A stretch of DNA of 11,963 bases from an uncultured archaeon (GTDB taxonomy: Archaea; Iainarchaeota; Iainarchaeia; Iainarchaeales; CSSED10-239). Numbering within the stretch: position 1 is the stretch's first letter; every line of letters begins with the position of its first letter. A program made the translations under genes and the position numbers. Where the stretch lies: positions 40,042 through 52,004 of the forward strand of contig CAYXAY010000002.1 of assembly GCA_964463155.1 (NCBI GenBank). Direction: 5' to 3'. This document shows, one piece after another, positions 1,590 to 6,716 of this stretch. A model generated the notes under the pieces. That model had not been told where the DNA came from. It made no database searches and was given only the letters and a program-made list of their open reading frames with translations.

Positions 1590-1898
1590 TTACTTTTTTG
1601 TAACTTTTTCTTCCTTAAATAGATATTTCGCAATCATAAATACTACAAAGGCAATTATTACGAAATTAAGCACTCCTCCTACAAAAGCACCCCAACCAAT
1701 GACTATTGGGCCTATTGAAAAGGTTGCTGTTTGCCAGGCTCCACCTGGAATAAATGGCGTTATTATTGGCATGATAATGTTATCAACTAAGGACTTAACT
1801 AAAGCCGTGATTGCTGCACCAATAATGAAAGCAACAGCAAGTCCCATTACCTTATATTCCTCTAGAAACTCCTTAAATTCCCTAAAGATCTTTAACAT
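1590..1898 (-). CDS. mscL: large-conductance mechanosensitive channel MscL
   Basis: 102 aa. FREFKEFL...MGLAVAFIIGAA...LVDNIIMP and a second TM ending in a KKEE-type tail align with canonical MscL (E. coli [38 protein letters not shown]). GGAGG lies 7 nt upstream of the ATG. Confidence 0.9.
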   Translation of the reverse strand: MLKIFREFKEFLEEYKVMGLAVAFIIGAAITALVKSLVDNIIMPIITPFIPGGAWQTATFSIGPIVIGWGAFVGGVLNFVIIAFVVFMIAKYLFKEEKVTKK

Positions 1899-1982
1899 AA
1901 CTTTGCCTCCAAATATAGATATCTGAACAAGATGATTTATAAATTGTGTTTTTTAGAAACAGTTAGTTTTTATAAGTAGAAT

Positions 1983-2065
1983 CGCAGAGGACGAGATTCG
2001 AACTCGCGTAGTCGTGAGACTCTAGCTTTCCAGGCTAGTGCGTTTGACCACTCCGCCACCTCTGC
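1983..2065 (-). tRNA. tRNA-Ser (anticodon GGA), class II with long variable arm, no intron, no encoded CCA
   Basis: Hand-folded cloverleaf from the reverse complement. Acceptor GCAGAGG/CCTCTGC. 3-bp D stem GCG/CGC. Anticodon stem CTAGC/GCTAG with loop CTGGAAA. Variable arm AGTC-TCAC-GACT. T arm GCGAG-TTCGAAT-CTCGT. Discriminator G. Confidence 0.93.
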
Positions 2066-2102
2066 ATGAACTGGTTGCACTCAGTTCACACACAGCCAAT
2101 TT

Positions 2103-2442: not shown

Positions 2443-2781
2443 TTAATGAACGGAAGCACCTGTTGTTACTTTTTCTGTTGGAAAAAGTAATGCTTCAACT
2501 TCAGCATCGCCTATGGCAAGAATCATGCCTTGACTAACAAGTCCAGCCATCTTTCTTGGAGCAAGGTTAATTACTACTGGTATTTGCTTTTCTAAAATAT
2601 ATTCCGGAGAATATTTGCTTGCAATTCCTGCAATCACTTGTCTTTTGAAATATCCAAAATCAATTACAAGCCTTAAAAGCTTTTGACTGTTTTCTACTTT
2701 TTCTGCAACGATTATCGTTCCTACTCTAATGTCAAGTTTTGAAAAATCATCAAAAGTAATAATTGGTTTTTCTTCTGACAT
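2443..2781 (-). CDS. tRNA-binding domain protein (Trbp111/CsaA/EMAPII-like OB fold)
   Basis: From the internal Met: MSEEKPIITFDDFSKLDIRVGTIIVAEKVENSQKLLRLVIDFG...RQVIAGIASKY...VVINLAPRKMAGLVSQGMILA. This is the classic F-x-K-x-D-x-RVG-x-I...A-x-KL...G...RQI-x-SGI...NL-x-P-x-K-x-x-G-x-x-S-x-GM signature. The track ORF's extra 52 N-terminal codons run through the tRNA gene and are rejected. Confidence 0.85.
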   Translation of the reverse strand: MSEEKPIITFDDFSKLDIRVGTIIVAEKVENSQKLLRLVIDFGYFKRQVIAGIASKYSPEYILEKQIPVVINLAPRKMAGLVSQGMILAIGDAEVEALLFPTEKVTTGASVH

Positions 2782-2805
2782 AATTGATCTTTTAGTTGTT
2801 TTTAT

Positions 2806-2888
2806 CGCAGAGAACGAGATTCGAACTCGCGTAGTCTTTCGACTCCAGCTCTCAAGGCTGGCGCGTTTGGCCACTCCGCCATCTCTGC
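2806..2888 (-). tRNA. tRNA-Ser (anticodon UGA), class II, no intron, no encoded CCA
   Basis: Cloverleaf from the reverse complement. Acceptor GCAGAGA/TCTCTGC. D stem GCG/CGC. Anticodon stem CCAGC/GCTGG with loop CTTGAGA. Variable arm AGTC-GAAA-GACT. T arm GCGAG-TTCGAAT-CTCGT. Discriminator G. It is a paralogue of the Ser-GGA gene (identical T arm). Confidence 0.93.
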
Positions 2889-2923
2889 AGAATAGGTTTC
2901 GCGCGATTCGTGCGCAATACATT

Positions 2924-2939
2924 TCGTGCCTATGCACGA
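2924..2939 (-). promoter_or_regulatory. TCGTGC-N4-GCACGA palindrome directly upstream of TATA-like AAATGTATT, in the tRNA-Ser(UGA) promoter region
   Basis: Perfect 6-bp arms with core GTGC/GCAC. The proximal core edge (2926) is exactly 37 nt from tRNA position 1 (2888), identical to the Ser-GGA locus. Confidence 0.4.
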
Positions 2940-3632: not shown

Positions 3633-3671
3633 AAAAAAAAAGAAAGAAAAAAATAAAATCAACTTGATTTT
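3633..3671 (-). terminator. hairpin plus oligo-T terminator of the 300-aa membrane protein gene
   Basis: Perfect palindrome AAAATCAA-C-TTGATTTT (3655..3671) overlaps the stop codon. On the transcribed strand it is followed by T7 (3647..3653) and T9 (3633..3641). Confidence 0.6.
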
Positions 3672-4572
3672 ATTTTGAAAACTTTTCCTGAATTTCCTTT
3701 AATTTATCTTTTTCTATATTATTCCTCTTAGACTCACTTAATGCTGTTTCTGCTATTGTTTGACAATTTATTGTTTTTCCGGTGTTTGCGTTAGTTAATA
3801 AACCGTCATCCGTTTTTATGTATGCTGTTAAATATACGTCATAATTTAAACCAGAAGATAGCATTGTTATGGCTTTTGTTGGAAAATTACCTATGAATGT
3901 ATGCTGGCTATCTGGTGATCTTGCGTGTGTCCAATCAAAAGAATTTACTCCTCCGTCTTGGTCCAAAATAGATAAATAGAGATGCACTCTTGGATTGTTA
4001 TTTATATTAGAAAGTCTTAATTTGTATTGTCCAGGGCATTCAAAATTAAAAGTAGTCGCTTCAGAAAATGCTTCTGTATTTGGATTTGAAACAAATTCTT
4101 TTTGTTTGTAAATCTCTCTTCCATTTTCAAAAACAAAATGTCCATAAAGCAATGTTGAAACAGATAAATTGTTTTTTGTAAACGGAATATAAGAATATGA
4201 AAATCCGTGTGCTGAATATTTGCCAGAATCATTTAATTTAAGTTTTAATTCATTATAGCTTCCTGATGCGATGCCTGTAGTAGATAAAACAAATTGTGTG
4301 CTTTTTTGTAAATTTGCTGGAACAGTTGATTCTGCATATTCGTATTGATAGAAATAATAGTGTTTTTCCTGAAACCCCCCTATATCAAACCATTGAGCTA
4401 ATCTTAATTCTCCAAACAAAGAATTGTCCGCGGTTATATACTGAGCTTCTTGAAGTGAAGCTTTTGCTTGTCCTGTTGTTGTCAAATTGGTTAGTACTAA
4501 CCCTAATATTACACCAATCACTAAAGCTACTAGTGCCCAAATGATTAATGATTTTTTATTTTCTTTTGCCAT
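3670..4572 (-). CDS. membrane-anchored or secreted beta-rich surface protein, no family recognised
   Basis: 300 aa. The N-terminus MAKENKKS-LIIWALVALVIGVILGLVL is a charged head plus a single hydrophobic helix. The remainder is Ser/Thr/Asn/Tyr rich with two Cys. GGAGG lies 8 nt upstream of the ATG, and TTTATAAG lies about 41-48 nt upstream. Confidence 0.7.
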   Translation of the reverse strand: MAKENKKSLIIWALVALVIGVILGLVLTNLTTTGQAKASLQEAQYITADNSLFGELRLAQWFDIGGFQEKHYYFYQYEYAESTVPANLQKSTQFVLSTTGIASGSYNELKLKLNDSGKYSAHGFSYSYIPFTKNNLSVSTLLYGHFVFENGREIYKQKEFVSNPNTEAFSEATTFNFECPGQYKLRLSNINNNPRVHLYLSILDQDGGVNSFDWTHARSPDSQHTFIGNFPTKAITMLSSGLNYDVYLTAYIKTDDGLLTNANTGKTINCQTIAETALSESKRNNIEKDKLKEIQEKFSK

Positions 4573-4634
4573 TTTGGTTTCCTCCGTTTATTTTGTTTAT
4601 GTTTTTATTTTCTTATAAATATATTATTAATTGA

Positions 4635-4644
4635 GGGGGGGGGG
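4635..4644. repeat. G10 (C10 on the gene strand) homopolymer tract in the promoter region of the surface-protein gene
   Basis: Read directly: ttgaGGGGGGGGGGaagat. It is the only G/C homopolymer longer than 6 in this AT-rich window and lies 63-72 nt upstream of the ATG at 4572. Confidence 0.9.
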
Positions 4645-4752
4645 AAGATTTTATAAATGTGTCGCTTGTTTAGGTTTAGAATAGAATCACATTTCTTTTT
4701 TTATTTTTATTTTCTTTTGACGCCGTATAGTTCTTTTCTTTTGGCACCAACA

Positions 4753-4778: not shown

Positions 4779-4786
4779 GGCAGAGA

Positions 4787-4858
4787 TGCAACTACCGGGA
4801 TTCGAACCCGAGTCTCAAGCTTGGGAAGCTTACATCCTAACCACTAGACTATAGTTGC
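4787..4858 (-). tRNA. tRNA-Gly (anticodon CCC), 72 nt, no intron, no encoded CCA
   Basis: Cloverleaf from the reverse complement. Acceptor GCAACTA/TAGTTGC. D arm GTCT-AGTGGTTA-GGAT. Anticodon stem TAAGC/GCTTG with loop TTCCCAA. T arm TCGGG-TTCGAAT-CCCGG. Discriminator A. TATA-like ATTAAATTT sits at -35..-27, inside the 3' end of the upstream CDS. Confidence 0.9.
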
Positions 4859-4862
4859 ATTT

Positions 4863-6467: not shown

Positions 6468-6506
6468 GTGTTAAAATTATTCTAAATTAAATAAGGGGGT
6501 TATTTT

Positions 6507-6716
6507 ATGACAGATTTACCGGTTGCGGCAGTAGATAGACTTATTAGGAAGGCGGGAGCTGAGCGTGTTTCAGAAGATGCAGCCGAAGAACTTAGTAAAA
6601 TCCTTTCGGAGGTAGCTATGGACATATCAAAACAAGCAATTGAACTAGCAAAACATGCCAAAAGAAAAACAATAACTGGCGAAGACATAAAGCTTGCAAC
6701 AAAGACCATGCAGTAG
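6507..6716 (+). CDS. archaeal histone (HMfA/B family histone fold)
   Basis: 69 aa. LPVAAVDRLIRKAGAERVSEDAAEELSKILSEVAMDISKQAIELAKHAKRKTITGEDIKLA aligns along its full length with HMfB ([61 protein letters not shown]). Confidence 0.95.
   Translation: MTDLPVAAVDRLIRKAGAERVSEDAAEELSKILSEVAMDISKQAIELAKHAKRKTITGEDIKLATKTMQ

Follow-up and report, generated by a model that had tools for sequence, protein, structure and literature searches.

For host-associated bacteria, phase variation driven by repeats is one of the central means of bet-hedging. The cells of DPANN archaea are attached to those of a host, and to our knowledge variation of their surfaces is largely unexplained apart from diversity-generating retroelements (DGRs), which Paul and colleagues (2015 and 2017) reportedly found to target surface proteins in this group. 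A run of ten cytosines in the promoter of a gene for a membrane-anchored archaeal protein, proposed in a preliminary description as a candidate phase-variation switch, raises the question of whether such a system also operates from an archaeal TATA/TFB promoter. The archaeal distribution of phase-variable loci is listed as future work in a 2025 review (PMC11868660), genome-wide statistics have been given for archaeal homopolymers in coding regions (PMC2831843), and slippage is on record for Pyrococcus polymerases in vitro (PMC4134008); in the literature searched, whose coverage was incomplete, we found no characterised archaeal promoter controlled by a simple sequence repeat (SSR). Here, we examine the tract within its window (the whole stretch of DNA that was analysed, 11,963 nt) and at the corresponding loci of related lineages.

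On the gene strand, the tract is bordered by CTT on its 5' side and TC on its 3' side, thus forming the pyrimidine stretch CTTCCCCCCCCCCTC. No other G/C run in the window, whose G+C content is 31%, exceeds 6; the next-longest are a C6 at 4375..4380 and two G5. An independent-base model predicts 9e-5 G runs of at least 10, and a first-order Markov model 4e-4. The run count thus agrees with the preliminary description, which had reported a G10 run unique among long G/C runs, and the coordinates likewise place the tract, as had been stated, 63-72 nt upstream of the ATG at 4572. The intergenic region that holds the promoter is 212 nt long and is bounded upstream by a gene for tRNA-Gly(CCC). Read 5' to 3' on the gene strand, its layout is ACA-TTTATAAAA-TCTT-C10-TCA-ATTAATAATATA-TTTATAAG-(26 nt)-GGAGG-(8 nt)-ATG (Table 1). 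The tract therefore does lie between TATA-like boxes within the promoter region, with the 15 nt originally given between it and the downstream box TTTATAAG; both boxes exist, but each had been placed one base away from its actual position, at 4658..4650 and 4620..4613. A G6 run on the gene strand at 4375..4380 is in frame, as had also been observed, and encodes Gly65-Gly66. As a candidate second switch we rejected this run; it is too short, and orthologues lack a conserved G6.

Table 1. Positions of the features discussed, counted from the first nucleotide of the window, followed by the tracts found at the same promoter position on contigs of related lineages
Feature	Position or contig	Strand	Description
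Gene for 300-aa membrane-anchored protein	3670..4572	-	Predicted TM helix, two tandem beta-sandwich (FN3/Ig-like) domains, C-terminal helix
N-terminal anchor, first 40 codons	4453..4572	-	Nearly invariant MAKENKKSLIIWALVALVIGVILGLV.TN.TTTGQAKA; common to a multigene family
Shine-Dalgarno (SD) GGAGG	4581..4585	-	8 nt upstream of ATG, inside conserved GGAGGAAACCAAAATG
Proximal TATA-like box TTTATAAG	4612..4619	-	26 nt upstream of SD
Invariant A/T block ATTAATAATATA	4620..4631	-	Immediately 3' of tract (alignment)
Poly-C tract	4635..4644	-	C10 on gene strand = G10 on + strand (GGGGGGGGGG)
Distal TATA-like box TTTATAAAA	4649..4657	-	Immediately 5' of tract; invariant in all poly-C-type promoters (alignment)
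tRNA-Gly(CCC)	4785..4859	-	Upstream neighbour, same strand; not part of the putative switch; also upstream in L015
Archaeal histone gene	6507..6716	+	Encoded in window
Tract, P0005 lineage	L005-L014		C13, C13, C11, C11, C16, C17, C10AC4
Tract, P0006 lineage	L016		C12
Tract, P0008 lineage	L017, L018		C15
Tract, P0009 lineage	L040, L041		C13, C16
Tract, P0018 lineage	L020		C13
Tract	L027		C9TC4
Tract	L031		C9

The Na+/H+ antiporter encoded in the window has its best named homologues, at 55-59% identity, in metagenome-assembled genomes (MAGs) of Ca. Woesearchaeota and Nanoarchaeota, and a DPANN (Woesearchaeota/Nanoarchaeota-like) affiliation is therefore plausible, in line with the archaeal, DPANN-type origin suggested earlier. 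Gene order around the tract is well kept across the loci compared, with PHP, histone, a 290-aa protein, a metallo-beta-lactamase and variable genes on one side of the surface-protein gene and, on the other, pyrG, which is convergent to it, followed by genes for a tRNA-binding protein, DUF4405 and MscL. Only three tRNAs exceeded the Rfam thresholds in the window. A link between tRNA-Gly(CCC) and the tract was considered and set aside as a coincidence, other lineages having a ParE or AAA ATPase gene upstream.

Homopolymer length in short-read assemblies may be in error by 1-2 nt. The tract itself could be a sequencing or assembly artefact, either a two-colour Illumina poly-G or a chimeric join at a low-complexity run, and the behaviour of contigs at this site lends that explanation some initial appeal. 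In SRR11582140, the single sample from which the window lineage is known (two assemblies, both with C10), two Logan contigs end or start no more than 6 nt from the tract and overlap each other by 2 nt, and at least nine contigs stop 25 nt or less from it (L001, L002, L009, L012, L014, L016, L018, L040 and L041). Within-sample length heterogeneity and homopolymer read errors would both produce such breaks. Against an artefact, the Logan contig L002 of the same sample runs in order through tRNA-Gly, the TATA box, C10 and TCAATTA, and the sequence over the tract (C(n)-ATTAATAATATA) is unbroken at orthologous loci of many independent assemblies, with both flanks and the tract spanned in L005, L006, L007, L008, L011, L017, L020, L027 and L031. 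These read-through assemblies come from different projects and assemblers, one of them (L017) at 31x coverage, and synteny is kept on either side of the tract. Moreover, L015 has a matching tRNA-Gly, TATA box and gene arrangement but a decayed tract. A join artefact, which the preliminary description had named as grounds for abandoning the proposal, was thus looked for and excluded by independent read-through, and we regard the artefact explanation as effectively refuted. Annotators of DPANN MAGs should nevertheless expect the tract to break assemblies at this locus.

An exact-protein look-up of the window's own gene returned only one other assembly, made from the same sequencing run, and so nothing for strain comparison; the loci of relatives were found through exact-sequence look-ups of homologous proteins. 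At least six further lineages carry pure poly-C at the same promoter position, ahead of orthologous or same-slot genes, within the common frame ...GATATA-TTTATAAAA-(T/A)-C(n)-ATT(A/T)ATAATATA...AAATTTAAACAAAA..GGAGGAAACCAAAATG. Since retrieval was by identical protein, each of the P0005 and P0009 series represents strains of a single species. Among the P0005 strains, flanks are 98-99.8% identical and the pure tracts range from 11 to 17 C, while L040 and L041 of the P0009 lineage are 99.88% identical over 4.9 kb and differ by 6 substitutions and by no indel except C13 vs C16. The comparison among related strains and orthologous lineages that had been suggested as a check therefore yields a tract that keeps its position and varies from 9 to 17 C between flanks that are 98-99.9% identical. 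The rarity of the run extends to the relatives as well: 215.5 kb of related loci contain eight G/C runs of length 6, four of length 7, none of length 8 and 17 of length 9 or more, and all 17 of the last class sit at this promoter. There is one such locus per genome in the sequence available. Between genomes, the neighbouring pyrG is 80-86% identical, whereas the promoter and the first 120-190 nt of the gene are 89-97% identical; the purity of the poly-C at this level of pyrG divergence therefore points to selection, gene conversion or both acting on the module. Judged from these alignments, the tract is a conserved feature of the promoter and at the same time an indel hotspot, where C residues are gained and lost far faster than the surrounding DNA changes, and we hold it to be very probably a hypermutable, conserved promoter repeat.

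The tract is not universal in the gene family. Decayed versions occupy the same position in two lineages, L015 with CCTTTTTCTCTCC and L032 with CCCACCATCCCTCT, and partly interrupted forms are seen in L027, in L007 and in the window itself, where the C10, among the shortest of the tracts, is flanked by T interruptions (CTT-C10-TC) that may mark partial decay toward a locked state. A second type of promoter in the family has no poly-C and carries instead (TA)6-9 followed by a pyrimidine-rich spacer of 13-16 nt (CGGTTATTCCTTCT); it was found in L003, L004/L033, L019, L021-23, L036 and ahead of the second gene of L031. At these family promoters we saw no (TA)n length variation between strains, L021, L022 and L023 (three samples of one lineage) being identical, and the (TA)n is most likely the TATA box itself. 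In a DNA-pattern scan of metagenomes, 2 of 8 matches were true further promoters and the remainder were chance A/T-rich sequence; the single match in viral contigs was due to chance; and a scan of GTDB genomes gave only 8 loci, none with a pure tract, together with the decayed one of L032. Given the decayed tracts and (TA)n promoters of relatives, the gene family does not require a tract. Orthologous promoters without a tract had been named in advance as evidence against a switch, and such promoters do occur in some relatives, but at least six lineages keep the tract.

The gene product has the look of an adhesin-type surface protein, and its ectodomain diverges rapidly. An AlphaFold2 model built on a 10-sequence alignment (mean pLDDT 82) has an N-terminal helix (residues 6-46), which is the predicted membrane anchor, about 17 strands arranged as two tandem beta-sandwiches, and a C-terminal helix. 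Residues 1-40 hardly vary in the alignment; in the ectodomain, identity between lineages falls to only about 30%, with two Cys residues invariant. The best Foldseek matches in the PDB are the Vibrio biofilm adhesin RbmA, FN3 pairs, the pilin BcpA and adhesin repeats, with E-values down to 3e-6 but TM-scores of 0.2-0.3, so that the likeness is at the level of fold only; Pfam has no match for the 300-aa protein, nor for the sister families P0012 and P0018. The predicted TM helix, the two beta-sandwich domains and the invariant Cys pair support the membrane-anchored product that the preliminary description had posited, and the protein is probably surface-exposed. As a separate observation, the N-terminus MAKENKKS/LIIWALVALVIG bears a loose resemblance to a prepilin peptidase (class III signal peptide) site. 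Such sites consist of [KR][GAS] followed by a hydrophobic helix and are processed by PibD/EppA.

The nature of the ectodomain's divergence is clearest in a comparison of L017 and L020, which share 86-90% identity over the upstream genes and the promoter and up to exactly nucleotide 120 of the gene, have no DNA similarity over the whole ectodomain, and become similar again at the stop codon and pyrG. The L017 product is of the two-beta-sandwich type (P0008), and that of L020 is of an unrelated 196-aa type (P0018) ending in ...YACI..DG..F.S..PCN. More generally, the invariant anchor MAKENKKSLIIWALVALVIGV... precedes ectodomains of several unrelated families, and a MAG contains several such genes. 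These alignments indicate that the ectodomain is swapped like a cassette behind a conserved promoter and anchor. By analogy, a module of promoter with repeat, SD and anchor, combined with exchangeable, fast-evolving ectodomains, is the architecture of bacterial variable surface proteins.

How the tract could act depends on which of the A/T-rich elements serves as the TATA box. In archaeal promoters generally, a TATA box lies near -27 with an A-rich BRE just upstream, an A/T-rich PPE lies near -10 and the start is a pyrimidine-purine step, its position being set by a distance of about 23-25 nt from the 8-bp A/T-rich TATA box (PMC5316973); the boxes and A/T blocks of the window are compatible with this geometry. 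Other genes of the window carry the octamer TTTATAAA 22-25 nt upstream of the ATG or SD; the leaderless ones have TTTATAAA or TTTTTAAA 22-25 nt before the ATG, and gene 1590..1898 has TTTATAAA, 25 nt and then GGAGG, the same geometry as from the proximal TTTATAAG to the SD. For the 300-aa gene, the candidates are the distal box, TAATAATATA and the proximal TTTATAAG. We favour as most likely a reading (a) in which the distal TTTATAAA would be the TATA box, the tract its spacer to the start, and ATTAATAATATA the PPE/Inr. In favour of reading (a), the distal box is the best match to the consensus and is invariant, and in the (TA)n promoters the sole workable TATA lies at the corresponding place, with a spacer of much the same length after it. 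A reading (b), in which TAATAATATA would be the TATA box and the tract would occupy the BRE position, is possible; all 9 lineages aligned have an identical TAATAATATA, and a conserved CA step 24 nt downstream of it fits this arrangement. Also possible is a reading (c), with the proximal TTTATAAG as TATA and the tract about 13-15 nt upstream of it; this box is less conserved between lineages (TAATAAG, CTTATAAG, CTAATAAA). The A/T block ATTAATAATATA may accordingly serve the distal promoter as its Inr/PPE region or act as a second TATA box, and comparative geometry, which leaves three viable readings, does not single out one TATA-like box.

Contingency loci are recognised by the length of the repeat (about 8 or more for a G/C homopolymer), its placement in a core promoter or 5' coding region, strain polymorphism between conserved flanks and a product that acts at the surface or toward hosts or viruses, and further by frequent, reversible length change within a population and an expression state governed by length. 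As to the first four of these, the tract has 10 C in the window and C9-C17 elsewhere; it sits in the promoter between TTTATAAAA and ATTAATAATATA; its length is polymorphic between conserved flanks in the P0005 and P0009 lineages; and the product combines a predicted TM helix and beta-sandwiches, with fold-level matches, and an ectodomain that is swapped. On this combination, we assign a probability of roughly 0.55 to the reading that the C10 tract is a contingency locus, a hypermutable repeat in the promoter of a variable surface-protein gene. In such a system, slipped-strand mispairing during replication would alter the distance from TTTATAAAA to ATTAATAATATA and onward to the SD (the spacing between the distal and downstream blocks is 10-18 nt across assemblies), and the altered spacing would in turn alter the strength of transcription of the surface-protein gene. 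The archaeal pre-initiation complex melts roughly -12 to +2 without ATP. With the distal box as TATA and the tract filling the spacer to the start, as in geometry (a), a short tract (about 12 or fewer) would leave the melting region A/T-rich, whereas in a long one (about 15 or more) G:C pairs would enter it and the promoter would be weakened or silenced; weaker initiation is thus predicted beyond roughly n = 13-14, as a graded or a threshold switch. In readings (b) and (c), the tract would determine how far apart the distal block and the core promoter lie, or their helical phase. Switching would make the display of a surface protein vary in a heritable yet reversible manner, and the ectodomain of this protein also evolves fast and is exchanged as a cassette. 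We infer that tract length plausibly switches or tunes expression. The fuller claim, of a bona fide archaeal contingency locus in which hypermutable poly-C in a eukaryote-like TATA/TFB promoter sets, stochastically and reversibly, how strongly an episymbiotic DPANN archaeon expresses a cassette-swappable surface adhesin, is put forward tentatively.

The main rival of the switch model holds that the tract, as a rigid G:C segment flanked by two A/T blocks, is a constitutive spacer or structural element of the promoter, acting for instance through DNA shape or through histone positioning or exclusion, and that its length polymorphism is a neutral by-product of unstable homopolymers and switches nothing. 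In support of this rival, all consensus lengths from 9 to 17 are found, with no clustering and no obvious preferred value, and neutral drift fits this spread equally with a multi-state switch; the 10-18 nt between the blocks overlap the 13-16 nt pyrimidine-rich spacers of the tract-free promoters; and a histone is encoded in a genome of 30% G+C. The promoter might also tolerate length changes, since the block 3' of the tract provides a TA start every two bases, and distance-based choice of the start in archaea may buffer them (PMC5316973). Against it, C-richness is dispensable, since family promoters that have CGGTTATTCCTTCT or CCTTTTTCTCTCC there instead persist; even so, a pure, mutationally costly homopolymer has been kept across genomes that share only about 80% identity in adjacent genes. 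Contingency loci, moreover, show just this kind of association, with a surface protein that evolves fast and is exchanged as a cassette. We regard the constitutive spacer as unlikely, though as a competitor to be taken seriously.

Two further explanations retain a functional role for the tract but assign it elsewhere. The tract could be a regulator site or spacer, with a factor or a second TBP/TFB on the distal box acting on a proximal core (TAATAATATA/TTTATAAG) and the tract setting helical phase, which would amount to a variant of the switch model with another geometry, comparable to the GAA repeat upstream of the vlhA promoter of Mycoplasma gallisepticum. The proximal TTTATAAG with its 26 nt and GGAGG does mirror the promoter of gene 1590..1898, the invariant block after the tract is TATA-like with the CA step at a suitable 24 nt, and the spacers vary over about 8 bp, which is most of a helical turn. 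No regulator is known, however, the distal box, which is invariant, fits the genome's promoter consensus better, and the one workable TATA of the (TA)n promoters is the distal-box homologue, all of which makes an upstream regulator quite improbable. Far less probable still is an RNA-level element in the 5' leader, whether through SD pairing, a poly(C)-binding protein, a G-quadruplex or i-motif, or transcriptional slippage. The window's tract does end in CCUC, which could pair with GAGG, and the MFE fold pairs UCUUCC with GGAGGA, but the fold from tract to ATG is no better than that of shuffled sequences (-4.4 kcal/mol, z = 0.62) and CCUC is peculiar to the window, being absent from other lineages; sequestration of the SD by RNA structure was rejected on these grounds. 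Such an element would also need a start upstream of the distal TATA box, where there is no conserved box, and a G-quadruplex or i-motif is unlikely because most tracts are shorter than the roughly 15 nt required for an intramolecular G4.

Returning to the contingency reading, repeat-based contingency switches are known in bacteria, and what would be new here, as far as sequence comparison can tell, is a contingency-type promoter repeat in an archaeal TATA/TFB promoter. The archaeal locus belongs to another domain of life than its bacterial analogues and therefore uses other promoter machinery; with TBP/TFB, the start is measured from the TATA box, and a bacterial -35/-10 spacing switch is therefore not directly transferable. 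If the reading is true, Archaea would have their first described case of SSR-driven phase variation, one that would act by moving G:C pairs into the melting region of the promoter rather than by -35/-10 spacing and would have a sister (TA)n version in related genomes. The locus thus poses a question without bacterial precedent, namely how a variable G:C tract is handled by a TBP/TFB/RNAP complex that measures its start from the TATA box. It also offers a concrete example for study: the length of its one promoter repeat is accessible in metagenomes, and its conserved promoter-plus-anchor module has interchangeable ectodomains.

Among bacterial systems, the poly-C and poly-G promoter tracts of Neisseria meningitidis opc and porA, reportedly described by Sarkari and colleagues in 1994 and by van der Ende and colleagues in 1995, are similar in that a surface-protein gene has in its core promoter a G/C homopolymer, about 9-15 nt long, and that tract length differs between strains, graded expression with length being a feature of Neisseria. 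They differ in that the promoters are of the bacterial -35/-10 type and experimentally tested, and in that Neisseria has dozens of loci per genome, compared with one per archaeal genome in the sequence available. In Haemophilus influenzae hifA/B, (TA)n repeats lie in the promoter spacer. TA repeats also occupy the promoter spacer of Mycoplasma mycoides Vmm (PMC10502178). These two systems recall the sister archaeal promoters with (TA)6-9 at the position homologous to the distal TATA, except that the archaeal (TA)n is most likely the TATA itself and is constant in length between strains in three samples.

The vlp genes of Mycoplasma hyorhinis carry a promoter poly-A whose length changes by indel (Citti and Wise 1995, as summarised in PMC10502178). 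The likeness extends to a homopolymer inside the promoter that changes length by indel, as the archaeal poly-C does, to a conserved 5' region (promoter plus membrane-targeting N-terminus) shared over a multigene family with divergent surface parts, and to a tiny-genome, host-dependent organism. The systems also differ: vlp is transcribed from a bacterial sigma-70 promoter in which the tract sets -35/-10 spacing, in contrast to TATA/TFB and poly-C in a genome of 30% G+C; the vlp anchor is a lipoprotein signal, in contrast to a TM helix; and ON/OFF switching is experimental in vlp, the archaeal case being known from sequence. Within the DPANN archaea themselves, DGRs offer a parallel in the accelerated variation of surface proteins, presumably tied to interactions with hosts or viruses. 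The window contains no DGR parts, and the two routes to diversity are distinct, DGRs rewriting coding sequence via a reverse transcriptase whereas the archaeal locus described here combines a promoter repeat with cassette replacement.

The ectodomain of the slot protein, encoded between the poly-C promoter and the convergent pyrG, has been swapped in the manner of a cassette, as judged by aligning two loci that carry the slot equivalent to that of the window (L017, from the P0008 lineage, and L020, from the P0018 lineage). These loci are 86-90% identical in their flanks, in the promoter and in the initial 120 nt of the gene, and DNA similarity is again found back from the stop codon and from pyrG onward, but the intervening ectodomain-coding DNA has no similarity. 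The encoded proteins are unrelated, that of L017 being 317 aa long with two beta-sandwich domains and that of L020 a 196-aa protein of the '...PCN' type.

The N-terminal 40 residues form a nearly invariant anchor, MAKENKKSLIIWALVALVIGVILGLVITN.TTTGQAKSA, that is common to a multigene family comprising the window's protein, proteins P0011-P0020 and loci L035-L039. Several unrelated types of ectodomain are fused to this anchor, several copies of the family are present per MAG, and none of the anchor-family proteins has a Pfam match.

In sister promoters belonging to this family, TTTATAAAA and the poly-C tract give way to (TA)6-9 with CGGTTATTCCTTCT after it; (TA)6-9 is a second type of simple repeat in the family core promoter. 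Among L021-L023, representing three samples, no strain variation was seen in these (TA)n promoters. Elsewhere, at another intergenic (TA)n in two strains of the P0005 lineage, (TA)7 at L005:10938 corresponds to (TA)6 at L006:5581, a difference suggesting that simple repeats in general are unstable in these genomes. At the poly-C tract itself, contigs of many assemblies terminate at the tract or at most 25 nt away; L001 and L002, both Logan contigs from the same run as the window, abut 5-6 nt downstream of the tract with a 2-nt overlap. Three further candidates from the DNA pattern scan, L025, L029 and L042, were rejected as family promoters; they have neither a poly-C tract nor a family gene, and are chance pattern matches in one unrelated A/T-rich sequence that occurs on two metagenome contigs and one IMG/VR GVMAG contig (labelled giant-virus MAG).

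Several lineages have an RHH-antitoxin/ParE-toxin pair directly upstream of their poly-C promoter, a place that tRNA-Gly occupies in the window. An upstream gene in the P0008 genome has domain matches to reverse transcriptase (RVT_1) and MutS_I.

Coordinates of family loci, contig ends and other genes
Feature	Location	Strand	Remark
Anchor-coding segment	window 4453..4572	-	
Slot gene	window 3670..4572	-	
Slot gene	L017:3001-3954		
Slot gene	L020:3388-3978		
RHH/ParE pair	L031:191-701	-	
RHH/ParE pair	L017:2385-2871		
RHH/ParE pair	L020:2772-3260		
RVT_1/MutS_I gene	L017:1-1152		
(TA)n sister promoters	L003:5931, L004:5929, L019:2932, L021:3930, L036:168		
(TA)n sister promoter	L031	-	
Contig ends at poly-C	L001:1, L002:1224		window about 4628/4629
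Contig ends at poly-C	starts of L009, L012, L014, L016, L018, L040, L041		
164-aa ORF	window 2443..2937	-	GTG start; overruns tRNA-Ser(UGA)
tRNA-Ser(GGA)	window 1982..2066		
tRNA-Ser(UGA)	window 2805..2889	-	
Archaeal histone gene	window 6507..6716	+	PF00808, E = 6e-19

Elsewhere in the window, a spurious 69-aa ORF at 6500..6709 lies across the histone gene on the opposite strand. By comparison with syntenic loci, the real gene within the 164-aa ORF is probably 2443..2781, encoding a 112-aa tRNA-binding-domain protein. The tRNA-Ser genes on either side of it show up as an 87-nt repeat with about 96% identity between genomes.
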